Positions 2,752 to 32,000 of a stretch of 32,000 nt of DNA are shown one piece after another. The position numbers and the translations under genes are program-made. Numbering within the stretch: the stretch's first letter is position 1; each line of letters begins with the position of its first letter. The stretch comes from an uncultured bacterium (lineage in GTDB: Bacteria; Auribacterota; JACPWU01): contig CAZXEQ010000003.1 in the NCBI GenBank assembly GCA_964640155.1, positions 74,189-106,188 on the forward strand, read 5' to 3'. The notes beneath the pieces were generated by a model that searched no databases, was not told where the DNA came from, and saw only the letters and a program-made list of their open reading frames with translations.

Positions 2752-2915
2752 CATGAATCCCGCTAAGAGGCAATCCACGGAGTTACCTCCGTGGATTGCC
2801 TCTTCGCACTCCTTCGAGTGCAGTCCCGATTCATATAAAAAATATCAGGAGGGACGGGGACAGGCGCTCCAGCGCTTGCGTTTACAAGATCCCACGGACG
2901 TAAGTCCATGGAGCT
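2752..2915. repeat. Cluster of GC-rich hairpin/palindromic mini-repeats in a divergent intergenic region
   Basis: Perfect 16-bp stem GAGGCAATCCACGGAG-ttac-CTCCGTGGATTGCCTC (2767..2802). GCACTC-cttc-GAGTGC (2806..2821). GCGCT-cc-AGCGC (2864..2875). CCACGGAC-gtaa-GTCCATGG (2892..2911), related in sequence to the first stem. Markedly more GC-rich than the flanks. Confidence 0.7.
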
Positions 2916-12579: not shown

Positions 12580-14571
12580 ATGAAATGTCTTTTGTTGAGA
12601 GTGTTTCTATTGATGGGGTTCATAACCATGTTATGTATTTCAGGTGAGGCAAGGGCAGGTGAAACCCAAGATATAAAACTGCCAGCTGATGTTGCAGCAG
12701 TGATTAAAGAGCGGGGACTAACCCCTGATGATATATTGGGGGCAGTGTCGACCTTTGTTTCTTCGGGAAAATATGATGACTATATGATGTTTGCTTCAGG
12801 CGGTCAAAGTGGGCAAATGTTTGTGATTGGACTTCCGTCGATGAGACTTTTGAGAGCTATTGCAGTTTTTACTCCTGAACCTTGGCAGGGCTATGGAGTA
12901 GGGGTTAAAGAATGTGCGCTTGAAAATATTGCTAAAACTCCTGATGGAGAAAAGATTCTAAGTGGGGATACACATCATCCTGCTCTGAGTGAAACGGGAG
13001 GAGAATACGATGGACAATATCTTTTTATTGGAGATAAGGCGCATGGACGTTTGGCGGTGATTGACTTAAAGGATTTTGAAACCAAGCAGATTATAGACAA
13101 TCCTTTAATGCACAATGATCATGGTGCCGCGTTTGTGACTCCCAATACAGAATACGTAGTTGAAGGGTCGCAATATTCTGAACCTTTGGGAAAAGTATAT
13201 GCGCCACTTTCAGATTATCAGGCCAAGTATCGAGGGGCAGCAACGTTCTGGAAATTTGATAGAACCAAAGGACGTATTGATAGGGAAAATTCTTTTGCGA
13301 TTGAACTTCCTCCTTACTGGCAAGATCTTGCAGATGCAGGAAAAGGGGCCAGTGAGGGTTGGGCATTCTGGAATTCTTTCAATACGGAAATGGCTACAGG
13401 AGGTATTGAATCAGGTAATCCTCCATTTGAAGCTGGAACGACGCAGCGGGATACGGACTATCTTCACGTTGTTAACTGGAAGAGAGCAGAAGAGGTTGTA
13501 AAAGAAGGAAAATTCAAAACGATTGAAGGCCTTAAAGTTATTTCTCTGGATGTGGCAGCGTCAGAAGGTGTTCTTTATTTCATTGCAGAACCGAAAAGTC
13601 CTCATGGTGTGGATGTAACTCCCAGTGGTAAATACATGGTGGTAGCTGGAAAATTGGATCCTCACGTGACGGTTTATGGAATTGAGAATATTAAAAAGGC
13701 GATTGCTGATAAAGATTTTGAAGGAAAGGATCCGTTCGGTGTTTCGATTATTCGATTTGACGCTGCTAAGGTAGCTCAAGTTGAATTAGGCTTAGGCCCT
13801 TTACATACTCAATTTGATGATAAAGGATATGCCTATACAAGTCTTTTTCTGGATAGCGCTATTGCCCGTTGGACTTTGGGTGATGATAAATACAAAGCAC
13901 CTGAGCAACCTTGGACCTTGGTTTCTAAAACACCGGTTCAATACAATGTAGGACATATTTCGGCTGCTGAAGGTGATACTGTGACCCCGGATGGGAAGTA
14001 TCTTGTTTCGCTTAATAAGTGGTCGGTGGATCGATTCTCCAATATTGGGCCGCTTCTTCCACAAAATCTACAGTTGATGGATATTTCAAAAACGGGAGAT
14101 AGCTTGAAGGTTTTATATGATATGCCGATTGGTGTAGGAGAGCCCCATTATGCTCAAATTATCAAGTCAGATAAAATTAAATCATGGGAGATTTATCCCG
14201 ATGTGGGTTGGGACCCTTTGACTCAAAGTAAGGGTGACAAGATGGTAACAAAAGGAAAAATTGTTCGAAATGGGGATCATGTCGAAGTTTATATTCCTGT
14301 GATACGAAGTCATTTTGATCCGGAACATATTGAGGTTAATGAAGGGGATAAAGTGACACTTTATCTTAGTAATTTGGAGAGGACTTTGGATGCCACACAT
14401 GGATTCACCATTTGCGGGTATAACATTTCCGCGAGCATTGAACCTGGGGAAACGGCAACGATTGAGTTTACAGCCGCAAAGCCAGGTGTTTTTCCATATT
14501 ATTGTTTGGAATTTTGTTCAGCGCTTCATCTTGAGATGACGGGATATTTAGTAGTTAAACCAAAAGAATAA
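12580..14571 (+). CDS. nosZ: Nitrous-oxide reductase NosZ, Sec-dependent (clade II / atypical) type
   Basis: ORF track, 663 aa. CuZ His motifs DTHHP, SPHGVDV, GPLHTQFD and EPHYAQI. C-terminal CuA motif CLEFCSALHLEM. The signal peptide lacks a twin-arginine. AGGAGG lies 7 nt before the ATG. Confidence 0.95.
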   Translation: MKCLLLRVFLLMGFITMLCISGEARAGETQDIKLPADVAAVIKERGLTPDDILGAVSTFVSSGKYDDYMMFASGGQSGQMFVIGLPSMRLLRAIAVFTPEPWQGYGVGVKECALENIAKTPDGEKILSGDTHHPALSETGGEYDGQYLFIGDKAHGRLAVIDLKDFETKQIIDNPLMHNDHGAAFVTPNTEYVVEGSQYSEPLGKVYAPLSDYQAKYRGAATFWKFDRTKGRIDRENSFAIELPPYWQDLADAGKGASEGWAFWNSFNTEMATGGIESGNPPFEAGTTQRDTDYLHVVNWKRAEEVVKEGKFKTIEGLKVISLDVAASEGVLYFIAEPKSPHGVDVTPSGKYMVVAGKLDPHVTVYGIENIKKAIADKDFEGKDPFGVSIIRFDAAKVAQVELGLGPLHTQFDDKGYAYTSLFLDSAIARWTLGDDKYKAPEQPWTLVSKTPVQYNVGHISAAEGDTVTPDGKYLVSLNKWSVDRFSNIGPLLPQNLQLMDISKTGDSLKVLYDMPIGVGEPHYAQIIKSDKIKSWEIYPDVGWDPLTQSKGDKMVTKGKIVRNGDHVEVYIPVIRSHFDPEHIEVNEGDKVTLYLSNLERTLDATHGFTICGYNISASIEPGETATIEFTAAKPGVFPYYCLEFCSALHLEMTGYLVVKPKE

Positions 14572-14582
14572 AATGAAGAAAG

Positions 14583-15704
14583 ATGGTTGATGGTATGCCT
14601 TTAAGGGAAAAGATTGTTAAAGCCTTATTATTCATTTCAATTGTGGCAATGGTTTTATCAATCTTTTTCCCTTACTGGCAACTGAAAGTGACAGCTCCTC
14701 AGTATCCTAAGGGGCTTAAAGTTACTGTTTTTTTAAATCATGTGGAGGGCGATGTTGGGGAAATAGATATTCTGAACCATTATATCGGGATGCGCTCTTT
14801 ATCTGAGGCTGCACAGATTGAAAGAAAACTGGCGATGGTTGGCATAGGGTTTATTCTGGTTTGTTTGGTCTTTGCCTTTTTCATATCCAGAAAAAAATTC
14901 TTCTTTTTTTTATTACCTGGTATTTTCTTTCCATTATTTTTTATGGGTGATCTTTATTATTGGTTGCGTGATTTTGGTTTGAATCTTAATCCCCATGCAC
15001 CTTTGAGTTCATCCGTGAAGCCTTTCATACCTCCCCTTTTTGGAATAGGCAAGATTGCTCAATTTCAAGCATTGGCGCAATTTGATACTGGATTCTTTTT
15101 AACAGTTGTTGCTTCAATTCTGATTTTGATTGCTCTTTTCTTAAGATTGGTCTCAAGAAGGAGTTGTTCTGTGGTAACAACAGGGATCATTTTTTTTGTT
15201 TTTATGTTTTCATTAGCACCGAATATTTTTGCCAAAACGATTGTTGTTAATTCCTCCTCTTCCCAAAATCTTCAAAAGGCTATCGATCAAGCAGAATCTG
15301 GGGATATCCTCGATGTTAAAGCAGGTGTTTATGATGGACCGATTCATATTAAAAAATCGATTCATTTAATAGGAGAGGCTTTCCCTATAATTGATGCACA
15401 GGGGAAGGGGAGTGGGGTTTATTTAGAAGCAGCAGATATATTGTTTAAAGGATTTGTAGTTCGAAATACAGGAAATGTCTTGTCCACAGAAGATTCAGGA
15501 CTATGGGCCACGGGAGAAAGGATTTGTATAGAAGACAATCGGTTTGAAAATGTACTTTTTGGAATCTATTTAAAGCAGGCCCCATTCGGTGTGGTCCGAA
15601 ATAATTCTTTAATCAGCAAGCCGCTGGATATTGCTCGTAGGGGAGATCTGATTCGTGTTTGGTGTAGCGATCATGTATTGATTGAAAAGAATTTTGCGAC
15701 GTAA
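14583..15704 (+). CDS. nosD: NosB-like polytopic membrane domain fused to the N-terminal part of NosD; ends at an in-frame TAA
   Basis: ORF track, 373 aa. Residues 1-215 have about 5 TM segments with APQYPKGL and NHYIGM motifs, in the position directly after clade II nosZ where nosB is expected. From KTIVVNSSSSQNLQKAIDQAESGDILDVKAGVYDGPIHI onward it reads as a NosD-type beta-helix start. Confidence 0.65.
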   Translation: MVDGMPLREKIVKALLFISIVAMVLSIFFPYWQLKVTAPQYPKGLKVTVFLNHVEGDVGEIDILNHYIGMRSLSEAAQIERKLAMVGIGFILVCLVFAFFISRKKFFFFLLPGIFFPLFFMGDLYYWLRDFGLNLNPHAPLSSSVKPFIPPLFGIGKIAQFQALAQFDTGFFLTVVASILILIALFLRLVSRRSCSVVTTGIIFFVFMFSLAPNIFAKTIVVNSSSSQNLQKAIDQAESGDILDVKAGVYDGPIHIKKSIHLIGEAFPIIDAQGKGSGVYLEAADILFKGFVVRNTGNVLSTEDSGLWATGERICIEDNRFENVLFGIYLKQAPFGVVRNNSLISKPLDIARRGDLIRVWCSDHVLIEKNFAT

Positions 15705-15713
15705 GGACGGGAT

Positions 15714-17435
15714 GTGGTGCTTTGGTTCTCGAAGAATATGCGAGTTTTGAATAACAAGTTTCAAGAGAGTCGTTATGGTTTGCATTTTATGTATTGTCAG
15801 CAGGCGGTCGTAGAACACAACAAACTTTCTCACAATTCAGTTGGTGCCTATTTGATGTACAGTGCCGGATTACAATTAAGAGAAAATATCATTTTAAACA
15901 ATCGTGGCCCTAGTGGATATGGAATAGGATTTAAAGACATGGATGAAGCGATGATTGAGAAGAATAATGTCATTGGTAATCGCGTTGGTTTTTTTCTGGA
16001 TTCTTGTATGAAGGGTTTATTTTATAACAATATGATTGCCTTGAATGATATTGGGATGCAGGTGATTCCAACTGCGAATAACAATCAATTTTCTAAAAAT
16101 AACTTTATTGAAAATGGAGAACAGATTCTTCTGGATGGTTCCAGTACGCGTACTGTCAATGCATGGAATCACAATCACTGGAGTGATTATCGCGGGTTTG
16201 ATGCAAATCAAGATGGGATTGGGGATGTTGCGTATCATCCTATGAAGCTATTCGAGAGAATTGCTGATCGATATCATACTTTAAAAGTATTTTATGGAAG
16301 TCCTTCTATAGCCGCGATTGATTTTGCTGCATCTACTTTCCCTGTTTTTCAACCAACGTCTAAATTTGTAGATGAGTTTCCAGTGATGCAACCCTTTAAA
16401 TTTTTGGGGATAGAAAAAACACCTTCTCATGTTCTACCTTGGATTCTTTTGTCTGCTGCTTTTTTTCTTCCAATGCTTGGCTTCTCTCAGTCGAGAATAA
16501 AAAGGGAAAACAGCATCGAGTCGACTGCAGAACCTCTTTTAAAAACGGGTACGCAAGTTGTGATACGTACTCAAGGGCTGACAAAACAATTTAAGAAATT
16601 GAAAGCAGTTTCAGATCTTGATTTGGAGATTCGTTTGGGTGAGGTTGTTGCGTTATGGGGCCCTAATGGGGCAGGCAAGACGACTTTGCTTCGCTGTTTG
16701 TTGGGAATCATTCCTTGTGACGGGGAAATGGAGGTTTTGGGAATGGAAGTTCGAAAAAATTCTAAGTTGGTCAGGCGGGCCATTGGATATGTTCCTCAGG
16801 AAATTCGCCTCCATTTAGATCACTCTGTTTTAGACACGGTTCGTTTTTATGCCCGGTTAAGGAGAGTTTCTGATACGCGTGTAGATCAGCTTATTCATGA
16901 GTGGGGATTGGAGGAATCAAAATACAAGCTTGTCCAAAATTTGTCTGGAGGAATGCGTCAGAAACTAGCGGTTGTCATTGCATTACTTTCTGATCCTCCC
17001 ATTCTTTTCTTGGATGAGCCAACCAGTCATTTGGATATAAAGACACGCAGAGAGTTCCTTCATTCTCTTCAGAAACTTAAAAGTCAGGGTAAGACACTGA
17101 TTTTTTGTTCACATCGATGGACTGAAGTTTGTCAAATGGCAGATCGAATTATTGTTTTAGAAGCGGGTGTCAAAAAGAGGGATGGAAAACCTGAAGAATT
17201 TAAGGATTTATTCGCAGAAGAAATTTTAATGAGATTGTCCGTGCAGAATCATTTTCTTAAAGAGGCACAAGAGATCTTAACAAAGCAGGGTTTTAAATTT
17301 TCACAAAGGGAAAATGACCTTTTGATTTTGGTGGGTCAAGCTTCAAAAATAGAACCTATTCGACTGTTGATTCAATCGGGGATTTCTATTCTCAATTTTG
17401 ATATGGATGGCGAGATCAATCATAACATGGGATGA
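15714..17435 (+). CDS. nosF: C-terminal part of NosD (beta-helix repeats), one TM segment, then the NosF ABC ATPase; same frame as 14583..15704
   Basis: ORF track, 573 aa (GTG start). RYGLHFMY, GAYLMYS and GYGIGFKD are NosD repeats. The hydrophobic segment is VLPWILLSAAFFLPMLGF. The ATPase has Walker A GPNGAGKTT, signature LSGGMRQK and Walker B ILFLDEPT. Confidence 0.75.
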   Translation: MVLWFSKNMRVLNNKFQESRYGLHFMYCQQAVVEHNKLSHNSVGAYLMYSAGLQLRENIILNNRGPSGYGIGFKDMDEAMIEKNNVIGNRVGFFLDSCMKGLFYNNMIALNDIGMQVIPTANNNQFSKNNFIENGEQILLDGSSTRTVNAWNHNHWSDYRGFDANQDGIGDVAYHPMKLFERIADRYHTLKVFYGSPSIAAIDFAASTFPVFQPTSKFVDEFPVMQPFKFLGIEKTPSHVLPWILLSAAFFLPMLGFSQSRIKRENSIESTAEPLLKTGTQVVIRTQGLTKQFKKLKAVSDLDLEIRLGEVVALWGPNGAGKTTLLRCLLGIIPCDGEMEVLGMEVRKNSKLVRRAIGYVPQEIRLHLDHSVLDTVRFYARLRRVSDTRVDQLIHEWGLEESKYKLVQNLSGGMRQKLAVVIALLSDPPILFLDEPTSHLDIKTRREFLHSLQKLKSQGKTLIFCSHRWTEVCQMADRIIVLEAGVKKRDGKPEEFKDLFAEEILMRLSVQNHFLKEAQEILTKQGFKFSQRENDLLILVGQASKIEPIRLLIQSGISILNFDMDGEINHNMG

Positions 17436-18274
17436 GATTTTTTATGGACATACGTAACACTTATATTTTGATGACTAAAGAGATGGCAGATGCGAGAAAG
17501 AACCGCTGGTTTGTTGTGATTGCGATTCTTTTTGCTCTCCTTTCACTTTCCTTAAGCCTTTTGGGTCTTTCGGGTTTGGGATCTGTAGGCGTTACAGGTT
17601 TTGGCAGAACAGCTGCGAGTCTTTTGAATCTGGTTCTTTTGATTGTTCCCTTGATGGGACTTTTACTCGGAGCTATGAGTATGGTGGGAGAAAAAGAACA
17701 AGGGACTTTATTGACTTTGCTAGCACAACCCGTGAGCGTATCAGAAATTTTGCTTGGAAAATTTTTAGGGTGTGCAATAGCCATTCTCGTAGCCCTTCTT
17801 TTAGGGTTTGGAGTCAGTGCTCTGGTGATGGGCCGTTATGCTGGAACAGAGCAAATAGGAGATTATCTTATTCTTGTGGGATTTACCCTTCTTTTGGGTT
17901 GGGCTTTTTTGAGCATAGGATTTTTTATCTCCATGTGGACGAAGCGTCATACCATGGCCTTAGGTCTAGCTCTGCTTTTCTGGTTTTTCTTTATTTTTTT
18001 GAGTGATTTGGGCCTTATCGGGACAGCCATTGTTTTGAAACTGACCCCGGGACAAATGCTAGGACTGGTACTGATAAACCCCATACAGTCATTCAAGCTT
18101 GCTGTGGCGGGTGCATTGCAGAAAAGCCTTGAGTCCTTTGGATCGATTGGAATGTATGCCATTCAAGTGTTTGGAGATGGATTGATTTTTATCTTAAGTT
18201 TTCTTTTGGTTTTGTGGCTGATTGTACCTCTTTTTTTGAGTTGGATTTTTTTTAAATCACGGTGTGTGGACTAA
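17432..18274 (+). CDS. nosY: NosY, ABC-2 type permease of the NosDFY complex
   Basis: ORF track, 280 aa, 6 TM segments. ATGA overlap with the preceding NosF frame. Confidence 0.85.
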   Translation: MRFFMDIRNTYILMTKEMADARKNRWFVVIAILFALLSLSLSLLGLSGLGSVGVTGFGRTAASLLNLVLLIVPLMGLLLGAMSMVGEKEQGTLLTLLAQPVSVSEILLGKFLGCAIAILVALLLGFGVSALVMGRYAGTEQIGDYLILVGFTLLLGWAFLSIGFFISMWTKRHTMALGLALLFWFFFIFLSDLGLIGTAIVLKLTPGQMLGLVLINPIQSFKLAVAGALQKSLESFGSIGMYAIQVFGDGLIFILSFLLVLWLIVPLFLSWIFFKSRCVD

Positions 18275-18729
18275 TGAAAAAATTTAAAATTATTTTTCTT
18301 TTATTCTTTTTGACAGGATGTAGCTCTTACCAGACCGGGAAGGTCCCTGAAATTCGGTATGGGCAGGATTTGTGTTCAGAATGCAGAATGACTTTGATGG
18401 ATGCTCCATTTGCCTGCGTTATTTTGACAGAGGATGAGGAAATTTTGAAATTTGATGATATTGCATGTATGGTTCGTTTTGAAAGAAACAATCAAACTAA
18501 AATTAAAGAGGCATGGGTTCACGATTGTGTGACACAAGCTTGGATTCAAAGATCAAAGGCTTATTTTGTTTTTGATCAAACATTAAACACTCCCATGGGT
18601 TCACATCTTATGGCGCTCGGCAGTGAAGAATCAGTACAAGAATGCTTAAAAAAGAATGGTGCAAAGCAGATAGGCTTTGATCAGATAAATGATCTTTTAA
18701 AGGAACAAATTCAAAAGGAGAGAAAATGA
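18274..18729 (+). CDS. nosL: NosL copper-chaperone lipoprotein
   Basis: I prefer ATG 18274 (MKKFKIIFLLFFLTGCSS, lipobox LTGC) to the track GTG at 18262. TAATG overlap with the nosY stop. NosL-type motif CSECRM...FDDIACM. Confidence 0.85.
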   Translation: MKKFKIIFLLFFLTGCSSYQTGKVPEIRYGQDLCSECRMTLMDAPFACVILTEDEEILKFDDIACMVRFERNNQTKIKEAWVHDCVTQAWIQRSKAYFVFDQTLNTPMGSHLMALGSEESVQECLKKNGAKQIGFDQINDLLKEQIQKERK

Positions 18730-19436
18730 AAAAAGTAAATCGTTATGCCTCGTTGTTTTTGATAAGTGTGGGAATGTTTGTTTCTTCAGTTCAGGCGGCG
18801 ACTGTTACAGGAAAAGTGGCTTATGAAGGCGATATTCCAAAACCTAAACCTGTTAGTTTTGGGGCTGAAAAACAATGTGCGGATATGCACAAGGACAAAC
18901 CTGTGATGGCGGAAGATATGGTTATTAATTCCAATCAAACTGTTAAATGGGCCTTAGTGTATGTGAAAGAGGGAGTGAAAGGAGAATTTAAGGCGCCTGA
19001 GCAGTCTGTTTTGATTGATCAGAATGGATGTATTTTTCTTCCTCATGCGGCAGCAGCAATGGTAGGGCAAAAGGTTGCTTTTCAAAATAGTGATGAAGTT
19101 CTTCATAATATTCGTGCTAACAGTAAAATCAATACACCTTTTAACATTGCTCAGCCTTTCAAAGGAATTGTGATGGAACAAGTATTTGAAAAACCTGAGG
19201 TGGGAATCGAACTGGTTTGCGATGTCCATTTCTGGATGAAGTCATATCTTCACGTATTTAATCATCCCTTCTACGCAGTGACGCAAGATGATGGAACTTT
19301 TGTCATTAAGGATTTGCCGGCAGGAAGCTACACCTTAGAAGTATGGCATGAAAAATTGGGCTCTCAAACTCAAGCAGTAACAGTGGCAGAGGGGGATTCC
19401 AAAGAAGTAGTTTTTACTTTGAAAAAATCTTCCTAA
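18726..19436 (+). CDS. Secreted cupredoxin-like (type-1 copper) protein with a C-terminal carboxypeptidase-regulatory-like beta-sandwich
   Basis: ORF track, 236 aa, signal peptide ...VSSVQA. Ligand-like pattern LHNI...CDVHFWM (H...C-x2-H-x2-M). C-terminal DGTFVIKDLPAGSYTLEVWHEKLG. ATGA overlap with nosL. Confidence 0.6.
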   Translation: MKKVNRYASLFLISVGMFVSSVQAATVTGKVAYEGDIPKPKPVSFGAEKQCADMHKDKPVMAEDMVINSNQTVKWALVYVKEGVKGEFKAPEQSVLIDQNGCIFLPHAAAAMVGQKVAFQNSDEVLHNIRANSKINTPFNIAQPFKGIVMEQVFEKPEVGIELVCDVHFWMKSYLHVFNHPFYAVTQDDGTFVIKDLPAGSYTLEVWHEKLGSQTQAVTVAEGDSKEVVFTLKKSS

Positions 19437-22106: not shown

Positions 22107-22330
22107 AGTTATTGTAACATAGCAAATTAAATTTGAATTAATGATATAGAAACTTAGTGCAAGGTAGAAGTTTTTATTTTTAAGTTTTTTAATTTATTCT
22201 ATAACTTATTTATTAAGAGGTAATTACAAATTATTTATTATATGGGCTATTTGTCTTTTGAGCTATTTTGTGCTATGTTAACTAAAGTGTGTAAGGGGAA
22301 ACTGAGGTGGGTAACTAGGGGAGTTTTTTA

Positions 22331-25300
22331 ATGAGAAGTGGTAGCTCTTTCTGGCATGTTTTTTTTAGAAAAATAAATTCTTGGATTATCATTTTTTCAT
22401 TTCTTTTAAGTTCTATTCCAGAACTTAATGAACCACTTTGGGCTCAAACAACTTTTTCCAAAAATGCCTTACCTGCTCAAATATTTTCTCCTGAAACTTT
22501 TTCTCATTCTTGGTCTAAAAAAATCAATTCTCTAGAAACTCCAGATTTAGATTTGGGTGAAATTTATCAGGGACAAACGAATGTGGGTATTTTTTTAATT
22601 CGTGACCTGCATTGTCAGCCACAAGCTCAACTTAAAGTTGCCAGAGGAATAGAAAAATTTTGTGAATTAGCAGGCGTTTCAAAAGTTTTTATAGAGGGAG
22701 CAAGTGATGAGATCAACATGGATCTTTATCAAGCATTTCCTGATGCAAAAATTAGGCATCTTGTGGCGCTTCATTTTTTAGAAAAAGGATATCTTACGGG
22801 ACCTGAATTTTTAAGCATGGAAATGGGAAATAAAAGTCAGTTTAAACTTTACGGGGTTGAAAACTCAAAGCTATATTTAGAAAATTTTGACGCTTTTCAA
22901 AAAATAAAATCTTTTTATAAGAAAAATAAAAAGATTATTGAACAAGTGAGTGAAAAGTTAAAAAGTTTAAAAAAAGAAAAAATTTCGAAAAATTTAAATA
23001 ATTTTATGGATCAATGGGAGGCTTGGCAGAATGGTGAGCTGAGTTTGCCTGATTTTCTTGCCAGAGTGGAGCCGTTAATTAAAGAGAAGGGTCAGAATAT
23101 TGAAGGAAGCCAGAAGATTTTAAAATGGTGTTCTTGGATAAAAGAAGCCAAGGGTTTAAATAGTCCAAAAATCCAACAAGAGCTTAATTCCTTCTTGCAT
23201 GAAATGGAGAAAAAACTGACTCAAGAATCTTTGAAAAATCTTGCCCCCTATCGGGGACTATCCTTACAGGACTATCTCTACGAGACTGCAAAAGCCCGTA
23301 AAAGATTGAAAAATCTTGTTGAGAAAACTTTGAAATATCGCTTGGGAAAAATCTCGCCAAAAAGTTATTTAGAGTATGTGAAGAGGCTTTATGAGAATCA
23401 TACCCAATCCTCTAAAAGTTTTGATCAAGCGTTTTCTGCCTTGGCTTTCTGGTATGTGTCTTTGGAGGAAGGGGAAGAGATGAAGCGTTCGAATATTTCA
23501 AAGATATTAAACCGTGTGATGGATGATTTAACGGATCAATGGGCAAAAGAAGAGGGATCTCAAGCCTTTATCGCTTTGTATAAGGATTGGGAATTATTAA
23601 AAAAAGGATTTCGATTGGAATTTGAGCGAAATGAAAGAAGGCAATTTTCTTTGTGGATAAAGAAAACAGGTTGGAAAAATTTTAGTAAAGATTCTCAAGA
23701 ATTAGGGATTGTTCTAGATGAAGAAAACTTTGAAAAAATCATTCAGAATATAGATCAATTTTATGATCTTGCCATCAAGCGTGATCATGTGATGGTGAAT
23801 AATCTTTTGAAAAAAGTGAAACAACCCACAATCCACCATCCTCAAATCACTGTTTTAATTGCTGGGGGTTTTCATACAGAAGGAATTCAAAGACTGCTTA
23901 AAAAGAAAGGGATTTCTTACGCTGTTTGGACACCCAAGATGACAGGCGAATTTGATAATCATCTTTATGAAGAAAGAATGATTGAACAGGCTCGTGCGGT
24001 GAGGTCCAGTTCTGCGAGTTTCTCATTTGATCGTAAACGAATAATAACCCCTCCACCTCCCCTTAAATTAAGGGGAGTGAAAATGAAAGAGGAAGACTCC
24101 CCTCTTAAATTAAGAGGGGTGGGGGGAGTTATATCAAAAAAAGTAGAAAAGCTTTCTGCTGCTTTGATTTTGGATAATATTTTGGAGATGTTAGGAAAAG
24201 AGGCCTTTGATCAAGCAACGTTTCGACATCGGGTTGAGATTTTAAGAAGATTAATGCAAGACTTGAGACGGGATGTCATTGCGAGGGAAGCTGATTTATC
24301 GGCTGACCGAAGCAATCTTGTTTTAGAAGACGAGATTGCTTCGCCTACGGCTCGCAATGACACGCGAGCTAGCCAGGGAAATTATTTTTCCGTGAATGAG
24401 GTTGTCGAAACATGGCTTGCTGAAATACGTGGGGAAGAAAAAAATATTTTAGGAAAAATGCAATGGGATGACATTCGTCTCCTTTTTGAGGCTTTGGATC
24501 CGGAAGGGGTTATGGCGGATGATCAATTTGATCCCAATAATGAAATTCAAAGAGGATTATATATAGAAGCTGTTGAACAGGCTTATGGAGAATTATTTCC
24601 CGCCCGCGTTGCGTTGACTAAGGCTTATTTTGATTTGCGATCTCAAAGGGAAGAGGCTGACGCTTCAGAAGTTTCTCCAGATGGAGTTCGTATTTATCGA
24701 GGGAAAGAGACTTTGGAGCTTCTAGGGATGGATTATCCAGAATTTCAAAGATTTATTAGGGCTCTTCTGGCCTTTGAAGAAGAGATCAAAAACGACTCTC
24801 TTTTTATCGCTGCTTCGAGTCGATTGATTTCTATGAGAACTGGGTGGCGTATGGCACAAGATGTTTTAGAAATGACTAAGAAATTTAAGGATATGGAAAT
24901 AAAGAATCCTTTGGGATATGCCTTAATATATGCTTTTGAAAATAATTATTCTGATTTGCTCGACTCTATGGCTGTTGGAGACCAGATGATTCGCGTTTTT
25001 ATAACGCACTGTGCTTTATGGTTGGGGGCTGACTTTTTTGATAGAACTCAGCATGCTGAAAGAAATATTTTGAGAATATGGTATAAAATTCAGAAAAATG
25101 GAACTTTAAGTTATGTTGAAGAAAAAGTCGCTCGTGCTCTCATGGGCAATAAACCTGTTCTTTTTGAAGAAGAGCCAGGATCAGATCCAGAACTTATGGA
25201 AGCCGTTCATTTTTTTGGAAAGGATGCACAGATCAGTGAGATTCACCTTCATCCTTTTACAGATGATGCGCATTTGATGGGACGGCGAATTCCAAGAGAG

Positions 25301-28096
25301 CAAGGTGAAGGACTTGAATATGGTTATGGAGAGATTTTAAGAGCTGTTGAAGCGGCTCGAAAGAATCCAGGCAAAAAACATATTCTTATTTTTAAAAATG
25401 TGGAAGCCATGGAACCCGGAATCAGAACCATGCTTCAAGAGATTTTGAGAATTCGTGAGATTCGAGATCCACATTTGGGAGGATCAGTAAGGTTGCCAGA
25501 CAATATTCAATTTCTTTTTACAATGGAAAAGGGAGTGAATTTGGAAGATGACTCCTTTCTGGATCGTGTGTTGATTAAAGTTATTCAGTCCAATAATCCT
25601 CAAAAAGAGGAAGAAATCCAAATTTCGTTAAATCCCCCTCTTGAATCAAGAGGGGATAGGGGAGTTAATGAAGATGTAACCCCTCTAACTTCTCTTGATC
25701 CAAGGGGAGAGATTGAAGTTAAAGAGGGAAAACTCATTCTGGCAGGAACTGAAATTCTCCTTGCTGAAAAATTTCACGATTTAACTTCAGAAAATTTACA
25801 TGACGAGCTTTACAAGCGTTTGGGTCTTATTCTAGATGAAGAGACCATTAAAATGTTGATCGCTATGCAAATGATGGTTAATCAACATAAGCCCATCTTA
25901 AGAATTGAAGGAGCTTCTGGAGTTGGAAAAACATTTACAGCTCGCGCATTTGCATCTTTGACCGGAAGAGACTTTTCTTCCAATCCTGTGAATCGAGCCA
26001 CAGATATTTCTGAATTTATTGGAGGATATGAAGCCAATGAAGAAGGAAATTTTAAATTTAATCCTCGTACTCTTTTTAGAGAAGTGCTTGAAAAGGGAGG
26101 TGTGATTGCTTTAAGCGAGCTCAATGCCTTAATTGATGAAAATGATAAAGTGAGTTTAGCTTGGTGGCTTCAGCAATTGGCAGAGTCTAAGCCAGACGCA
26201 GAGGGTTTTCGTACGATTTATTTAACGGAACTACCTACAGCAGCTGGAAAATTTAAGCGTTCTGAGCTTGATAAAATTCGAGTTTCTCCAAAAGCTTTAG
26301 TCATTATTGATACCAATCCTGAAACAAATTATGGGGCACGTGGAACTTTCCCCAAAAGATTTAAAGAAGCAACGCCGGTTTTGAAAATTGGGGAATTTAT
26401 TCAACAAGAAAAAGTTTCCCCTCCCTCAATTTCCACCCCCCTCACCCAACCTCTCCCACCAGGGGAGAGGGGACAGCCTGAAATTTCTGATGCTGCGCAG
26501 AAAAATCTAAAGAAAATCCAGCAACATTTAAATCTCTTTTTAAAATTCCCATGGGAAGTGGAAGGCAAAATCATTTCTGAGGGAATTACAGATGATCTAG
26601 AGCGCAACGAACTTTCTGAAAAGCTCGCAACTCTTTTTAATAAAATTGTTCAGGCCTATTTAAGTCAAGATCTGGGTAAAGACGAAGATATTATTTTTAC
26701 TAAGAGAGAATTGAAACGTTTGGCTGAAGATGTGATGTACGCTAAAAAAGTTTTAAAAAAATCTCATGACGAAGCTTTAATGTATGGAGCTAGGATTCAT
26801 TTGGTCTCTCGATGGAAGAAGCAAACAGATCGTGACAAGGCGTTAGAAATCATTGAAGCAGAATTCGCAAAGGGGAGAGCTCCTCCCAGTCTGGCTCCCA
26901 AAAATCTCCAAGAATTTATTCTGGATCAAAGTATTGATAAAAACAGAACGGTACATGTCTATGCAGAACCTCAAACAGATGTTGCAAAAGAATTAGAAAA
27001 ATTAAAAGCTGCGCGTCCCAATTTACGTGTAGTTGTAATTCCTGCCACAGATGAAACCGATCGTTTCATGTTGGAAGGAGGATTTATTCCAACTGAAGCA
27101 GGTGGGATGGCCTTAGCTCGTGGGGTATTGGGACGTTTAATTCATGCTGCCAACAATGCTCCTCCTGGAGAAGAAGTTCTTTATGTGCTCGATAACGCAC
27201 ATAATATCCCTCCTCAAGAAATTATAGCTCTCAATGAATTTTTGCAAGACCGCCTTTTAAAAATTAAAGGCAGAAATGAAGGGAAACTTCCTCTCAATGC
27301 ACATATTCTTTTCTTAAGCCGTCAGGATTCAGAAACAACCTGGTCTCAGGCTGAACAATCTCGAGCAGTTCCCTACGGTTATTCTCCTTCCTATGATTTT
27401 AGACAAGAATTTGTTGAACAAATTAAAACGAAAGCTCTTGATTGGAATCCTTACGCAGAGAAATTTTATAATGTTTTGTCTGAGTTTGAACGCAAATATC
27501 GAGAAGTATTAGAAGATAAAGGTGAAGCTTACCGAGGCAGAATTTCAGATGCCAGGTGGAAAGCGTTTCTAGAGCGTGTTGTGTTCTGTGCTGGGCATAC
27601 ACGCGTTGAAGATTATTCAAGCTTGATTCGAAGGATAGAAGAAGAGCTCGATCTTTTTTATCTGCGTGGACTAGACAATGCAAGTATTCAGTTACCCTTA
27701 GAACAATTGCGTACAGGTTTTCGATCGGTGCAGTATTTTGTGAATCAGGATGTGGAAAAAAGGAAAAGAGAAGAGAGAGTGATTCAGGGTCAAGGAAAAG
27801 GGGGCTCGGAACAAAAAGAAATTCAAGAAGAAAGTGTTTATGAGAGCGTGGTTCGTTTGCAAGCTGAAATTGCAACCAGTGAGCCAGAGGCAAGAGAAAG
27901 ATTTGCTCGAGAATTAGCGACATTTATGAATAAGAAAAGCAACGATGTGGAATGGGTAGAAATTTTTGGCATTCATAAGATTGATTTAAAACCTGGAGAT
28001 TTGTTCTATTCGAATCCTGAAGAACTTGAAGAAACACGTATGGGTATAGTCATAACTGAGTCAAGATGCCTTTCTACTGGAGACGGCAATGAGATA
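22331..28096 (+). CDS. ORF A, 1,921-aa protein: N-terminal signal-anchor, about 500-aa N-terminal domain, helical regions and three AAA_5 (MoxR/dynein/midasin-like) ATPase modules
   Basis: Not in the ORF track. I translated every codon from ATG 22331 (GGGGAG 7 nt upstream, in-frame TAG at 22316..22318) and found no stop until TAA 28094..28096. Key motifs are GASGVGKT (25910..25933) and LVIIDTNPETNYGARGTFPKRF (an AAA_5-like sensor region). Confidence 0.8.
24044..24132. repeat. Palindromic element E1, translated in frame in ORF A (ITPPPPLKLRGVKMKEEDSPLKLRGVGGVI)
   Basis: Inverted termini ATAACCCCTCC / GGGGGGAGTTAT. Two internal palindromes, CCCCTTAA-A-TTAAGGGG and CCCCTCTTAA-A-TTAAGAGGGG. GC-rich relative to the flanks. 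Confidence 0.7.
24275..24361. repeat. Palindromic element E2 (87 nt), translated in frame in ORF A (VIAREADLSADRSNLVLEDEIASPTARND)
   Basis: Nested inverted repeats. Outer pair GTCATTGCGAG (24275..24285) / CTCGCAATGAC (24351..24361). Inner pair CGAAGCAATCT (24308..24318) / AGATTGCTTCG (24333..24343). Confidence 0.75.
25631..25712. repeat. Palindromic element E3 (E1 family, rearranged halves), translated in frame in ORF A (LNPPLESRGDRGVNEDVTPLTSLDPRGE)
   Basis: CCCCTCTTGA-A-TCAAGAGGGG (25635..25655), followed by GGGGAGTTA, a short spacer, TAACCCCTC and a degenerate second palindrome. Confidence 0.6.
25910..25933 (+). other. The only canonical Walker A (GASGVGKT) in ORF A
   Basis: gga gct tct gga gtt gga aaa aca, read in the ORF A frame. 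Confidence 0.8.
26436..26474. repeat. GC-rich hairpin element E4, translated in frame in ORF A (PLTQPLPPGERGQ)
   Basis: CCTCTCCC-acca-GGGAGAGG (26450..26470), embedded in a C-rich then G-rich tract. Confidence 0.55.
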
Positions 28097-29616
28097 AGTT
28101 TCCACGAAATTTCTGAAATTGTAACATTAGTAGTCCCCATACCTAAAATCACTCGCGAAAATTTTTATGATGAAGTCAGGCGGCGTCAGGAAGAAATGAG
28201 GACGACCAATGATTTGGTATACAAAAAGAGATTGGTGGCAGAGCTGAAATGGATTTTAGATAAATATGGTGATAAAGGTGAATGGGTTGAAGCAAGGCAA
28301 GAACAAGAAGCTTTGAATAAAGGAGATATTTTTGATTCCACTGAGGTTGTGAGCAAGGCTTTGCCTTTTCATTTTCCTGAAGGGGGAATAGTGGCATGTG
28401 AGAGATATCAAGATAAATTTGTGGTAGCGGATACCAACGGAAATATTTTTATGCTCGACACTCAAGATCCACAAGGAAAGTTAGTGCCGCATGCTTACAA
28501 AGGAGAGGGAATTTTAAAGATGCGAGTCAACGGGGATAAGCTTTGGATCATTACAGATGAAGAAAAGCTTACAAGTATCGATTTATCCAATTCAAAAAAT
28601 CATTTAAAAAAAATAGAAAATCATTCGGGCGTACGCTCTCTTGCTACGTTTGATGGAAAAATGATTGTTGGAAAGAATAACGGAGAGGTTTGGATTGAAA
28701 GTGAAGTTTCTAAATTCTTTCCAAAGGGGTTTAGAGAGTGGTTTGAAAGATTTGATGCTGGGGCTACGCCTGTGCCTAAGTTTAGATTGAGATTATTTGA
28801 AATTCTGGCAGAAGGCACTTTGCGATTGTTTAAATTTTTCAAAAGGGTTCTAGGTCTTCCTCTTAAGAAAGTAGGCAAGTTTAAAGGAAATATCTCTGCA
28901 ATATATACGATAGAAAATCAGTTGTTGATTGTAGGAATGAATGGAGAATTAGAAATTTGGACGCCTCGAAAGAGTTGGCTAAGGTTTGTTAGCCCATTTG
29001 AGAAAAGGGTATTAAGAAAGGGCCAGAATAAAGATTTCTCAATCATTGCTTCTGAATTAATAGGGGATCGGCTATTTGTACGAAGTTCAGGGCATGAAAT
29101 TCTTTCATTTGATTTAAAAACTCCTCAAATAGGATTTACTCTTCTTGGAAAAGTAGAGCCTGGTCCCGCTGCTCTTTTTGCCTGGGGAAATAAGCTTGTC
29201 ATTCCAGAATACGATGGATCTTTAAAAGTATGGGATACTGAAAAACCTGAAATAGGATTGCAAAGAGTAGCTTCTTATGAAGCAGGTTTTGCTCTAACGG
29301 CAGTACCGCTAGGCGATAGACTGATGATAGGAGGCGGTCGTGAGTTACAAGTCTATGAAGCCAATCCACGAGGGGTGATGGTAGATGATCAAAATTTTGT
29401 TTCGATGGCGAGTGGAGAGATTTATTCCCGTAAAGATTTATCTACTGAAGTAACTTTGCGTTTGCCCATGCCTCAGGTTGATCCGGAAAATCTTCTTCAG
29501 AGAATTCAAGAACTACAAAAAGAAATCCATGCAAGTACTCCTACTCAAAAAGAAATAATAGCAGCAGAGTTAATTTATAGGATAAAACATTCGTTCTCGA
29601 CAGGCTCGAACAGTGA
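28066..29616 (+). CDS. ORF B, 516 aa: linker, small beta segment and a 7-bladed WD40-like beta-propeller; possibly a frameshifted continuation of ORF A
   Basis: Not in the ORF track. The frame is -1 relative to ORF A. ATG 28066 follows TGA 28057..28059. All codons were checked and the frame is open to TGA 29614..29616. Blades include ADTNGNIFMLD, GKNNGEVWIE, GMNGELEIWT, EYDGSLKVWD and GGGRELQVYE. Confidence 0.7.
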
Positions 29617-29639
29617 TAGCCTTCGGGCGGAGTCGAGAA
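29594..29639. repeat. Palindromic element E6 (46 nt) carrying the ORF B stop codons
   Basis: Inverted termini TTCTCGAC (29594..29601) / GTCGAGAA (29632..29639). Inner pair GCTCGAA / TTCGGGC. Contains TGA TAG at 29614..29619 in the ORF B frame. Confidence 0.75.
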
Positions 29640-29641
29640 GT

Positions 29642-32000
29642 TTGAAAGTTGATGTAGAAAGCGTAGAGTGGATGGAATTTGATGCAGAGAAAAAGGATTT
29701 AAAAGTAGGCGATGTGATCAAAGTAAAGAATGTGATGGGACAATTTTCTGATCATTCTGAGGGTAATACCATTTTATGTAGTGCCGTTCTTCCCGATGGA
29801 AGACTACTGACTGCGGGATGGGGTTCTGTAGAGATTTATGATTCTAAAAATCCCAACAAACCATCAGTCAAAATCGTTCATTCTTCTTCTCCTTTTCAGG
29901 CTTTGGGTCTTTTACCTAATAATCGATTTGTAACAGGAGAAGCGGATGGAACTATTACGATCTATGACTTTCAGGGAAATGTTATTTGGAGTAAGAAGTT
30001 TCTACATCCACTAAGAGCCTTAGGAGTGCTTTCAGATGGGCGTATTGTGGCGGGTGGAACATGGGGGAAAATGACAGTTTATAATCCTAGTGATCCTAAG
30101 GATGAAGGAGAAAGCTTAAGCGGTTATGATGGGACGATTCATGATATTCAAGTTCTTCCAGATGATTCCATTGTTGTCGTAGGCGCTGGAGGATATGTTA
30201 AAAAGTTTGAACTCAAAGCCGGGTCAACTCCGCAATCTTTGGGTCGATATTATCAGTATGATGGTAGACAAATTATTTATAAGACAAGGCGTTTATCCAA
30301 TGGCCATTATGTAGTTGTTGGAGAAGGTGGGGCTATTAAAATTTGTGATCCCAATTATCCAGACAGTGAACCTATTCTGGTCGGCCATTATGGAAAAGAT
30401 GTTCACGCTCTTGAAATTTTGCCGGACGATACCATTGTAGTGGGTGGAGATGGAGGAGAAATTTTAGCTTTTGAACCCAAAGAAAATGCAAAACCTCATA
30501 AATTTGGAAATTATGGGAATGATATTAACATGATTCGCTATTCACCTGCGGATGGAAAGATTTTGATAGGTGGAAGAAATGGAGTGTTAGCGTTTATTGA
30601 AAAAGAGATGGTAGGAGTGATGTGCAGTGAAAAAGATTTCGTAAGCCCTATGGGTAAAAAATATTCTTTAGATCAAGTTTCTACAGATCAAGCCAAAGTG
30701 TTCATTCCAATTCCTCATGTCACCGATGAAAATTTCTCAAGTGCAGTCACTCGCTTGCAAGCTGAGATTAAAACAGCAGAAGGGGCTGAAAAGAAGAGAT
30801 TAGCTGAGGTTCTCATGCATGTTTTGAGGAAAGGGAAACCTGCCCAAAGAAAAGATGGATCCCCGATAGATACACTCGGGGATGACAAACACTCTGTACC
30901 ACTGTCATTCCCGAAGGCTTTTATCGGGAATCCATTAGAAGATAAAAAATGGATTCAGTCCCAACAAAAGAAAGAAGAGCTAGGAGTGGGAGATGTTTTC
31001 AAGACTGAAGGGGTGTTTGTAGAAAGAGTTTCTATATCAGACCGATCACGCACAATAACAACTCAAGCTGTCTTACCCGATGGACGTATTGCTTATGGTT
31101 TTGCAGATGGGTGGGTTGAATTGTGGGATCCTAAGAAACCCCATTTGGGATTTAAAAGAATAGGACAATATGCTGTAGGAAGAGGCAATCAGGAAATCAC
31201 GGTTTTAAAAGTTGTGGCAGGAAAATTATTAATTGCTGGGAAGGCTGGATATCTTGAAGTGTGGGATCCGGAACAGCCTACTCAAAAACCTTGGTGTTTG
31301 GGAGATTACAAAGAAGAAATTTATGCGATTGAAGAATTAGATGGGGAAATTTTTGTCGGTGGGAAAGGAGCAGTTATTCGATATTGGACTTTGGAAGATT
31401 TAAAAAATAAAAAAGAGATTCAGGGAGAAGTTTTGGGACAGTATGGGCATGAATTTAGCAGTGTTTTTAGTTTTCTTGTTGTGGATGGAAAACTTGTAAT
31501 AGGGGGAGGTGTTCAACTAGAATTTTGGGATTCACAAGAGCCAGAGAAAAAAATTCAAAGTACAGCAATGCATGAAGGAGCCACACACGCTTTGCAATAT
31601 TTAGATGGGAAAATTGTTGCTCTTGATTCAAGTGGGCATATCCGTTATTGGGATAAATCTTCTTTGTATGCTCAAGAATCCCAAGTCCCTTATCCTATTG
31701 GAGAGTATGGTATGAAAGCTGAAGCAATGAAGGTTTTGGATGGGAAGTTGTATGTGGGAGGATATGGAGGAGAACTTAAAGTATGGGATCCAGAGAGCTC
31801 ACGAAAAGGTCTGCACAATATATTTCAGTATCAAAATGATGAAGGAGCAAAACCCGGAACAATGAATTATATTACAACTATTTCATATCTTGAAATAGTA
31901 AACGGTCGTTTGTCTATCATAGGCTCCTCTAACGGTGTTGGTGGGGTTACTCTCTTAGAATTTTCTCCAACCGGTGTGGTGAATAGCAAGAATACTTTTA
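29642..32000 (+). CDS. ORF C (partial, open at the window end): two further linker plus 7-bladed propeller modules; start uncertain (TTG 29642 or ATG 29672)
   Basis: Not in the ORF track. The frame opens after TAA 29570..29572. All codons to nt 31999 were checked with no stop. Blades include VLPDGRLLTAGWGSVEIYD, GEADGTITIYD, VLPDGRIAYGFADGWVELWD, GYLEVWD and GELKVWD. Confidence 0.7.
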   Translation, partial: MKVDVESVEWMEFDAEKKDLKVGDVIKVKNVMGQFSDHSEGNTILCSAVLPDGRLLTAGWGSVEIYDSKNPNKPSVKIVHSSSPFQALGLLPNNRFVTGEADGTITIYDFQGNVIWSKKFLHPLRALGVLSDGRIVAGGTWGKMTVYNPSDPKDEGESLSGYDGTIHDIQVLPDDSIVVVGAGGYVKKFELKAGSTPQSLGRYYQYDGRQIIYKTRRLSNGHYVVVGEGGAIKICDPNYPDSEPILVGHYGKDVHALEILPDDTIVVGGDGGEILAFEPKENAKPHKFGNYGNDINMIRYSPADGKILIGGRNGVLAFIEKEMVGVMCSEKDFVSPMGKKYSLDQVSTDQAKVFIPIPHVTDENFSSAVTRLQAEIKTAEGAEKKRLAEVLMHVLRKGKPAQRKDGSPIDTLGDDKHSVPLSFPKAFIGNPLEDKKWIQSQQKKEELGVGDVFKTEGVFVERVSISDRSRTITTQAVLPDGRIAYGFADGWVELWDPKKPHLGFKRIGQYAVGRGNQEITVLKVVAGKLLIAGKAGYLEVWDPEQPTQKPWCLGDYKEEIYAIEELDGEIFVGGKGAVIRYWTLEDLKNKKEIQGEVLGQYGHEFSSVFSFLVVDGKLVIGGGVQLEFWDSQEPEKKIQSTAMHEGATHALQYLDGKIVALDSSGHIRYWDKSSLYAQESQVPYPIGEYGMKAEAMKVLDGKLYVGGYGGELKVWDPESSRKGLHNIFQYQNDEGAKPGTMNYITTISYLEIVNGRLSIIGSSNGVGGVTLLEFSPTGVVNSKNTF
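30857..30933. repeat. Palindromic element E5, translated in frame in ORF C (DGSPIDTLGDDKHSVPLSFPKAFIGNP)
   Basis: Two inverted hairpin units: GGATCCCCGA...TCGGGGATGAC (30857..30886) and GTCATTCCCGA...TCGGGAATCC (30904..30933). Confidence 0.7.

Follow-up and report, generated by a model that had tools for sequence, protein, structure and literature searches.

Why would a single gene contain six hairpin-forming palindromes and read every one of them as protein? The gene lies on the forward strand of a 32,000-nucleotide stretch of DNA from an uncultured bacterium (contig CAZXEQ010000003.1, positions 74,189 to 106,188, assembly GCA_964640155.1), the whole of which we refer to as the window. It is a giant open reading frame (ORF), and a preliminary description had placed palindromes at six sites within it. 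All six sites indeed hold palindromic or hairpin-forming sequence, and we call them E1 to E6. We put the probability at about 85% that they are copies of small non-autonomous hairpin repeats of the kind known as repetitive extragenic palindromes (REPs) and Rickettsia palindromic elements (RPEs), from at least four families, inside one giant gene.

The giant gene and its six elements

A single forward-strand frame without stop codons spans 22319..31999 and continues past the end of the window. The giant ORF that hosts E1-E6 occupies 22331..31999 of this frame, from an ATG at 22331; its product exceeds 3,223 residues, and the 3' end of the ORF lies beyond the window. Its continuity overturns an earlier division of the region into separate ORFs A, B and C. 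It also corrects the count of translated elements: the in-frame reading was right, but the number is six rather than five.

The encoded protein begins with an N-terminal domain of ~570 residues, continues with two midasin-like AAA_5 modules (matches at residues 932-1060 and 1170-1360) and then passes into modules that join a helical linker to a WD40/beta-propeller. The AAA_5 and WD40/propeller assignments are Pfam matches. In a full-length search of the protein collection, the N-terminal domain (about residues 10-570) was the only part covered by homologues apart from the midasin-like AAA matches. Its relatives, at no more than 33% identity, are the N-termini of proteins of 2,000-5,500 residues from metagenome-assembled genomes (MAGs) of Omnitrophota, Auribacterota ('Ca. 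Theseobacter exili') and Elusimicrobia, and these giants carry varied enzyme domains downstream of the common N-terminus.

The six elements are 37-89 nt long and all are read on the forward strand. E1 (24047..24133, 87 nt) has outer arms TAACCCCTCC and GGGGGGAGTTA around two CCCCT(C)TTAAATTAAG(A)GGGG hairpins, and is translated as TPPPPLKLRGVKMKEEDSPLKLRGVGGVI (residues 572-602). E2 (24274..24362) is a palindrome with CGTC/TGTC-type tags, TGTC-ATTGCGAG ... CGAAGCAATCT-loop-AGATTGCTTCG ... CTCGCAAT-GACA, that encodes VIAREADLSADRSNLVLEDEIASPTARND (residues 648-678). Two inverted units of the E1 family make up E3 (25631..25712): CCCCCTCTTGAATCAAGAGGGG-ATA-GGGGAGTTA, then TAACCCCTC-TAAC-TTCTCTTGATCCAAGGGGAGAG. 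Its 31-nt arms are 77% complementary and its translation is NPPLESRGDRGVNEDVTPLTSLDPRGE (residues 1100-1128). E4 (26436..26472) is a single unit consisting of a C-rich 5' box CCCCTCACCC, AA and the hairpin CCTCTCCC-ACCA-GGGGAGAGG; it is translated as PLTQPLPPGERG in the region of residues 1362-1384. E5 (29594..29641) is a two-stem hairpin, TTCTCGAC-AG-GCTCGAAC-loop-CTTCGGGC-GGA-GTCGAGAA, and encodes FSTGSNSDSLRAESRS (residues 2420-2439). E6 (30855..30935, 81 nt) comprises two inverted REP units of CGTC type, with their tags face to face across a 15-nt spacer. Unit 1 is ATGG-ATCCCCGA-TAGATACAC-TCGGGGAT-GACA and unit 2 is TGTC-ATTCCCGA-AGGCTTTTA-TCGGGAAT-CCAT, giving the general form TGTC-AT(T/C)CCCGA-9 nt-TCGGG(A/G)AT-CCA. 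The arms of E6 are 33 nt long and 79% complementary, and its translation is GSPIDTLGDDKHSVPLSFPKAFIGNP (residues 2841-2869). The peptide SFPKAFIGNP and the 26-residue insert between VLRKGKPAQRK and DKKWIQ, previously assigned to E5, belong to E6; the peptide encoded at 29594 is that given above for E5.

The positions proposed for the elements relative to the domains are borne out. Alignments to the N-terminal homologues stop at residues 535-581 (two outliers stop at 659 and 699), and E1 and E2 follow this domain. E3 lies between the two AAA modules and E4 after the second.

Fold strength, composition and reading frame

We ran a sliding 90-nt minimum free energy scan over the entire 32 kb and derived z-scores from 200 dinucleotide shuffles. 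E2, E1, E6 and E3 rank second to fifth among all 90-nt folds, behind an intergenic hairpin at 2751 that is described below. Folding energies are -45.4 kcal/mol for E1, -50.5 kcal/mol for E2 (with 12 of 12 positions of the outer arms paired) and -42.3 kcal/mol for E6. The z-scores are -5.2 (E1), -8.7 (E2), -4.1 (E3) and -7.7 (E6), and for each of these four none of the 200 shuffles was equally stable. E5 forms a moderate hairpin (z -2.15, equalled by 7 of 200 shuffles). The nested palindromes described for all six are strong in E1, E2, E3 and E6 and moderate in E5; E4, to whose fold we return in the Discussion, is only a short hairpin.

The elements had also been called conspicuously GC-rich. 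They are GC-rich relative to the window (0.47-0.73 against 0.39), but for E1, E2, E3 and E6 the excess is modest (0.47-0.48).

In E1, E2, E3 and E6, two of the three forward frames are stopped and the gene reads the single open one. E5 is open in two forward frames, and E4 in all three. One open frame, and that frame in use, is the signature expected from a survival filter acting on translated insertions.

As the preliminary description had it, the elements are confined to the giant gene: the family motifs of E1-E6 have no further occurrence in the window, even when mismatches are tolerated. For all six to fall in the giant ORF, with the remaining ~19 kb of coding sequence free of them, P is ~0.0015 under uniform insertion, calculated from ORF lengths as (0.34)^6. 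When related loci are included, a hand tally puts 10 elements in giant genes and 2 in other coding sequence, each class amounting to ~39 kb; this enrichment is suggestive only.

Element families

If the elements are mobile repeats, copies should be found elsewhere, and each type does have relatives in public collections. Fetched loci carry L numbers and homologous giants P numbers in what follows.

E1 and E3 share one plan and their hairpins are identical at 19 of 21 positions. The hairpin CCCCTCTT-N5-AAGAGGGG lies between outer arms TAAC(N)CCCC and GGGG(N)GTTA; the family can also be written TAAC..CCCCTCTT-loop-AAGAGGGG..GGGGAGTTA. Among viral contigs, the pattern CCCCTCTT-N5-AAGAGGGG-N3-GGGG matched at least 120 stretches, often with several copies per contig, and none was matched by a control pattern of equal composition that is not palindromic. 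The viral copies remain conserved past the searched pattern (...GGGGAGTTAT), and one in-ORF copy (L162) encodes PQPPLKLRGG.

This hairpin is abundant in the viral contigs of IMG/VR (L160-L279), where two subfamilies can be seen. The first occurs in contigs of 0.36-0.48 GC, several of them with human-microbiome-style ids; it has a TTTGT or TTCGT loop and the tail GGGGAGATTTAA, and several copies per contig stand ~1-2.5 kb apart with longer flanks conserved. The second ends in GGGGAGTTATGA. We considered and rejected two identities for these sequences. The TAAC...GTTA arms of E1 and E3 recall integron attC sites. In attC, AAC and GTT lie at the inner end of the arms; here, by inspection, they lie at the outer end. 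The GGGGAGTTATG tail of the viral copies could suggest a Shine-Dalgarno sequence with a start codon, but the spacing is too short.

For E4, the pattern CCCCTCACCC-N0-6-CCTCTCCC-N3-6-GGGAGAGG, with 26 specified bases, again matched at least 120 viral stretches. Their consensus, CCCCTCACCC-N2-4-CCCTCTCCC-loop-GGGGAGAGGG, is likewise conserved past the searched pattern. A copy of E4 type also sits within the gene of another giant, P0051 (L123, position 11761).

For E5, whose plan is TTCTCGACAGGCTCGAAC..GTCGAGAA, the pattern TTCTCGACAGGCTCG-N12-32-GTCGAGAA matched 35 metagenome stretches where we estimate that fewer than one would be expected. About 30 of the 35, in contigs of 35-53% GC, share the consensus TTCTCGACAGGCTCGAAC-loop-YTTCGAGCGRAGTCGAGAA. 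We treated the other ~5, in contigs of 61-68% GC, as chance matches because the conserved interior is absent. Copies of the E5 family that lie in ORFs elsewhere use the same FSTGSN frame. Seven metagenome contigs from the Joint Genome Institute (L134, L136, L137, L139, L145, L150 and L155) hold clusters of E5-family copies, the extra copies lying within tens of bases; these resemble arrays of bacterial interspersed mosaic elements.

The E2 pattern, GTCATTGCGAG-N30-60-CTCGCAATGAC, was scanned against one genome per bacterial species and matched at least 120 stretches in many phyla. Hosts among the matches listed include Bradyrhizobium, sphingomonads, Chloroflexi, Bacteroidota, Cyanobacteria and the candidate phyla radiation, as well as Berkelbacteria, Saccharibacteria, Planctomycetes, Legionellales and Rickettsiales. 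All listed copies follow the plan GTCATTGCGAG-..CGAAGCAATCY-loop-RGATTGCTTCG..-CTCGCAATGAC, with an inner GCAATC(C/T)...(A/G)GATTGC core. Alphaproteobacterial relatives mostly have the form cGTC...GACg. The sequence ...GCAAT-CCA-G is frequent in the wider family, and the E2 of the window has CAATCTTG at that place.

Units related to E6 (GTCATTCCCG-loop-CGGGAATCC) occur in seven of the fetched E2-type loci (L003, L046, L049, L085, L090, L097 and L117), of which L049 is a Tisiphia locus. Both E6 units carry the TGTC tag (30904-30907; GACA at 30884-30887 is the same tag on the other strand), as does E2 (TGTC at 24274, GACA at 24359-24362). The CGTC/TGTC tag is absent from E1, E3, E4 and E5.

In each family most copies are intergenic. 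Long open frames span 7%-23% of copies, a figure that is an upper bound in GC-rich contigs, and the in-ORF copies of low-GC contigs include some whose peptides nearly match those of the window: PQPPLKLRGG, FSTGSN...SSEVEK and VIAR...APRND. None of E1-E6 belongs to an Rfam family, a search having returned sub-threshold chance matches only, and a literature search with the element termini as text strings returned only unrelated primers. The preliminary description had reasoned that elements found in single copy and conserved in orthologues would be ordinary coding sequence. Instead, every type is multi-copy in public collections, and in the homologous giants elements of these types are lineage-specific insertions.

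Evidence for insertion

A first comparison lies within the giant protein itself. It has four paralogous junctions between a helical linker and a propeller, and they align well. Two of these junctions are ~5 residues long; of the others, one holds the E5 peptide and one that of E6. This alignment points to insertion of E5 and E6 after the modules were duplicated. The preliminary description had already placed both at the same linker and noted a paralogue without an insert; there are two such linkers.

The same alignment helps to judge whether the elements might be nothing more than chance palindromes in low-complexity linkers, that is, ordinary coding sequence, or whether the ORF might be a chimera joined at repeats. 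Repeats can, as a general matter, cause misjoins in metagenome assemblies, and the weak folds of E4 and E5 are what chance could produce. Chance does not account for the stability of E1, E2, E3 and E6, which no shuffle reached, nor for family patterns that occur far above expectation when the control pattern gives nothing. A frame that stays open for 9.7 kb across six elements argues against a chimera, and so do the flanks of E5 and of E6: before and after each element the alignment is to one and the same paralogous module, and a misjoin would not produce this. On these grounds we exclude chance and chimerism, which we find hardly credible.

Homologous giants provide a second comparison, for which we aligned the N-terminal domains of 53 proteins. 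Within this conserved domain P0032 has SLRGAPTGRRSNLQPEIATAPSGPRND, where ~50 homologues have a gap. At the DNA level this is an in-frame element of canonical form, C-GTC-ATTGCGAG...CTCGCAAT-GAC-C, with a z-score of -4.6. P0042, which comes from an Omnitrophica MAG, carries TGTCATTGCGAG...CTCGCGATGACA at this very position of the alignment. The P0042 locus (L399; MAG GCA_009691445.1, contig SICL01000013.1) holds three tandem E2-type elements at 2521-2830, intergenic and directly upstream of the P0042 gene, and a fourth in frame within it (3835-3900). At another site of the alignment, P0051 (NPPLVPPLSKGGAGGF) and P0035/P0062 (TPLNRGE..VPLNKGG) have hairpins of E1/E3 type, and the site is empty in all other proteins.

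A third case lies outside the giant genes. On the P0032 contig, the product of queA (L121, gene 16151-17278) has 31 residues (90-120) where Thermotoga maritima QueA (1vky) has 9. These residues coincide with an in-frame double C-rich hairpin (L121 16421-16510, z -3.7): CCTCCCCC-TTTAT-GGGGGAGG ... CCTTCCCCCC-ACAA-GGGGGGAAGG. The queA homologue of Rickettsia conorii, RC0283, is listed in the literature with an insertion of the CGTC-4 repeat.

These inserts also bear on a different history, in which intergenic REPs became coding when neighbouring genes fused, so that the elements would mark former gene boundaries. Much of the distribution could be read in this way: most family copies are intergenic, three E2-type copies stand directly upstream of P0042, and the giants have heterogeneous enzyme domains behind a common N-terminus. 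In the window, E1 starts where the similarity of the N-terminal domain to other giants stops, and E3 and E4 flank an AAA module. Yet the inserts of P0032/P0042, P0051/P0035 and queA are inside conserved domains, not at junctions, and the linker that holds E5 and E6 is short and intact in two paralogous modules. Nor do such peptides generally mark junctions: in a narrow regular-expression scan of 60 homologous giants, only a handful had peptides of element type. We consider an origin as fusion scars very improbable.

Unrelated families occupy homologous positions in three instances (E5 and E6; P0032 and P0042; P0051 and P0035). Such coincidence would be understandable if the hairpins were kept for a role in the mRNA or DNA of this ~10-kb-plus gene: ribosome pausing at domain boundaries for co-translational folding, RNase protection or processing, relief of supercoiling, or recombination. 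They fold with high stability (-42 to -50 kcal/mol) at linkers and domain boundaries, and elsewhere REPs have been proposed to act as RNA and as DNA elements (PMC3733652). Recurrent positions are, however, equally expected from tolerance alone, if only insertions into loops survive, and two of the four paralogous linkers do without a hairpin. We regard retention for such a role as quite unlikely; being compatible with an insertional origin, it bears on the maintenance of the elements only.

One further stretch of the giant gene was examined as a seventh insertion and rejected. At nt 23233-23320 (about residues 300-325) the protein has ~25 residues, SLKNLAPYRGLSLQDYLYETAKARK, that are absent in all 52 aligned homologues. 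There is no palindrome (z -1.6). The stretch is flanked by a direct repeat, GAAAAATCTTG, and filled by others, with a 14-nt tandem duplication (GGACTATCCTTACA / GGACTATCTCTACG) inside; it looks like an expansion by slippage or duplication.

Relation to known repeats

The repeats closest to E2 and E6 are the CGTC REPs surveyed by Di Nocera et al. (2013, PMC3733652). According to that survey, RPE-6 of R. conorii is CGTC-1 and RPE-4 is CGTC-4. The general plan is a terminal CGTC, TGTC or CCTC tag, an 8-9 bp stem starting with AT, a 4-5 nt loop and a short 3' tail that is mostly CCA; other loop lengths occur in some repeats of Bradyrhizobium, K. olearia and M. prima. For these repeats there is no known dedicated transposase, and the catalogued in-frame copies encode SFPRKRES, VIPAKAGI, DSRFRGND and CHSRESGNP (PMC3733652).

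E2 and E6 have much of this plan. Besides the tag, both have 8-bp stems that start with AT (ATTCCCGA/TCGGGAAT and ATCCCCGA/TCGGGGAT in E6, ATTGCGAG/CTCGCAAT at the termini of E2), and E6 has the CCA tail (...TCGGGAAT-CCA-T, and ...TCGGGGAT-CCA-T on the other strand). E6 shares GTCATTCCCG...CGGGAATC with CGTC-1, a comparison made through the published description. The published peptide VIPAKAGI is the translation of GTCATTCCCGCGAAAGCGGGAATC, which we found in L003. Inverted pairs of units, a distribution over many phyla and in-frame intragenic copies that add 8-30 residues are further common traits, and the E6 peptides DGSPIDTLGDD and SFPKAFIGNP are in the frames of the published DSRFRGND, SFPRKRES and CHSRESGNP. 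Judged by these motifs, it holds that E2 and E6 literally belong to the superfamily that contains RPE-4 and RPE-6. The RPE-like reading of the preliminary description is thus supported for the set as a whole and literally true of these two.

There are also differences. The host here is an Omnitrophota/Auribacterota-like member of the Planctomycetes-Verrucomicrobia-Chlamydiae (PVC) group, a lineage outside the published survey. The tags of E6 face inward, whereas those of the published R. conorii dimers and of L003, L090 and L117 face outward. E2 has a composite interior, with an extra small stem and the conserved GCAATC core, and perhaps represents a variant that none of the four published CGTC families includes. 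One fetched locus, L085, has a hybrid palindrome at 6730-6805 in which units of two kinds, GTCATTCTGAGCGAAGCGAAGAATCC and GGATTCCCGCCTTCGCGGGAATGAC, are paired, suggesting that heterodimers can arise between distinct types of (C/T)GTC-ATT... unit, as the literature reports for CGTC-2 with CGTC-3.

The six elements also resemble RPEs in a broader sense, as in-frame palindromic repeats of which several families occur in one genome. Ogata and co-workers reportedly described RPE-1 and others in 2000 and 2002 as elements that lie in frame in protein genes and are tolerated as surface loops. What marks an RPE is that it is in frame and absent from homologues: all six elements are in frame, E5 and E6 are without counterparts in the paralogous modules, and elements of the same types are lacking in homologues. 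RPE-1 differs in being ~100-150 bp long and specific to Rickettsia; here a single gene holds six copies, which represent at least four families.

GTAG REPs, and the REP doublets forming hairpins (REPINs) that they compose, are said to be mobilised by REP-associated tyrosine transposases (RAYTs), in work attributed to Nunvar (2010) and to Bertels and Rainey (2011). They too are short GC-rich hairpins with an unpaired tag, mostly intergenic with occasional intragenic copies, and their inverted doublets, which fold into a longer hairpin, have the architecture of E1, E3 and E6. By contrast, the GTAG tag is present in none of the six elements and the window holds no RAYT gene; E1 and E3 have outer arms of TAAC...GTTA, and a C-rich 5' box precedes the hairpin of E4.

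The GC clusters of yeast mitochondria are another case of GC-rich palindromes invading an AT-rich genome. Intragenic MITEs (miniature transposable elements with inverted repeats) and other small mobile sequences, among them QMITE1/2 of Coxiella (PMC5896051), are similarly small and non-autonomous and add peptide segments within ORFs (Delihas 2007, PMC2229807; see also PMC10969869). MITEs usually measure 100-400 bp, have terminal inverted repeats and target-site duplications, and derive from an insertion sequence. The elements described here measure 37-89 nt; they have terminal inverted repeats by construction, and inspection showed no convincing direct repeats at their flanks.

The rest of the window

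The most stable 90-nt fold of the window is a composite hairpin at 2755..2832, between the divergent genes for a HAD hydrolase and a hemerythrin (-46.6 kcal/mol, z -10.4). It has a perfect 21-bp inner stem, GAGGCAATCCACGGAG/CTCCGTGGATTGCCTC, with the GCAATCC/GGATTGC core of the E2 family and without the GTCATTGCGAG termini. The adjoining stretch, 2840-2915, has no significant fold (z -1.4).

The other genes near the giant ORF are likewise ordinary ones, for NnrS, a porin, a major facilitator superfamily transporter, cox1-3, a nosZ cluster, two radical-SAM proteins and a response regulator. Positions 12580-19436 hold a nitrous-oxide reductase cluster: a NosZ-like protein (nos_propeller plus cupredoxin), an ORF without a Pfam match, an ABC-2 permease (NosY-like) and NosL, and a single ORF in which a NosD beta-helix and an ABC ATPase (NosF-like) are combined. 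Cytochrome c oxidase subunits I-III and NnrS are encoded upstream. Together these would be notable respiratory equipment if the organism is of Omnitrophota or Auribacterota type.

Discussion

How could six hairpins come to be part of one protein? We propose that selfish or neutral hairpin repeats land in coding DNA now and then. The survivors would be those that add a whole number of codons with a stop-free frame, at a linker or domain boundary that tolerates 12-30 extra residues, and they would then be transcribed and translated as odd loops rich in Pro, Gly, Arg and Ser. A gene of more than ~10 kb, built of modules on long linkers, may offer many permissive sites. By analogy with the RAYT model for GTAG REPs, the repeats could spread by transposition of single-stranded DNA hairpins, with a transposase of HUH/Y1 type acting in trans.

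Several observations weigh against this interpretation. E4 forms only a short hairpin and its fold is insignificant (z -0.6); we count it as an element because of its family membership, not its fold. The full-length search of the protein collection found no orthologue that covers E2-E6 or anything past about residue 570, so there are no direct empty sites for the window's own E1-E4, which are nevertheless probably insertions like E5 and E6. No transposase, Y1 and RAYT included, is among the Pfam matches of the ORFs of the window. Inspection revealed neither target-site duplications nor conserved target motifs nor convincing direct repeats flanking E1-E6. The loops of both E6 units (AGGCTTTTA and TAGATACAC) measure 9 nt and the stem of E2 encloses 65 nt, in place of the 4-5 nt of the CGTC plan; on sequence, E2 and E6 are best called variants, not textbook members, of the CGTC REPs. 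The multi-copy status of CGTC repeats is seen across genomes, and the host's own genome is represented by 32 kb with one E2 and one E6. Finally, that the element peptides are made is a prediction from the open frame. Their linker positions suggest that they would be compatible with the fold. Predicted tryptic peptides that cross the element junctions are ...GVGGVISK, ...SNLVLEDEIASPTAR and ...AFIGNPLEDK.

In-frame insertion of REPs and RPEs is itself established in Rickettsia, Sphingomonas, Rhodopseudomonas, Erythrobacter, Coxiella and others (PMC3733652). The novelty lies in the host lineage, the class of gene, the density (one gene with six copies that represent at least four families) and the reuse of homologous permissive sites by different elements. 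Two papers on the giant genes of Omnitrophota make no mention of palindromic insertions. Our finding adds a dense case to a phenomenon already known and brings no new mechanism.

There are practical consequences. For homology and domain work on giant metagenomic proteins, the element-encoded peptides VIAR..ARND, SFP..GNP, PPLxxRG, PLTxPLPxGERG and FSTGSN..SR should be masked. Since their range covers many phyla as well as viral contigs, the families also provide a cheap marker for the horizontal spread of mini-elements.

In-frame palindromic repeats are usually seen as a peculiarity of Rickettsia. Here the same behaviour, involving in part the same CGTC/TGTC superfamily, is found in a giant-gene lineage of the PVC group. 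One may go further and ask whether palindromic mini-elements of several unrelated families accumulate preferentially in the giant genes of Omnitrophota-like bacteria, as in a sink, and would aid gene growth and the shuffling of modules there. We think this doubtful, though worth stating for what it would imply: the elements would supply new linker sequence and perhaps recombination junctions, and would be contributors to the architecture of giant genes, not mere passengers in them.

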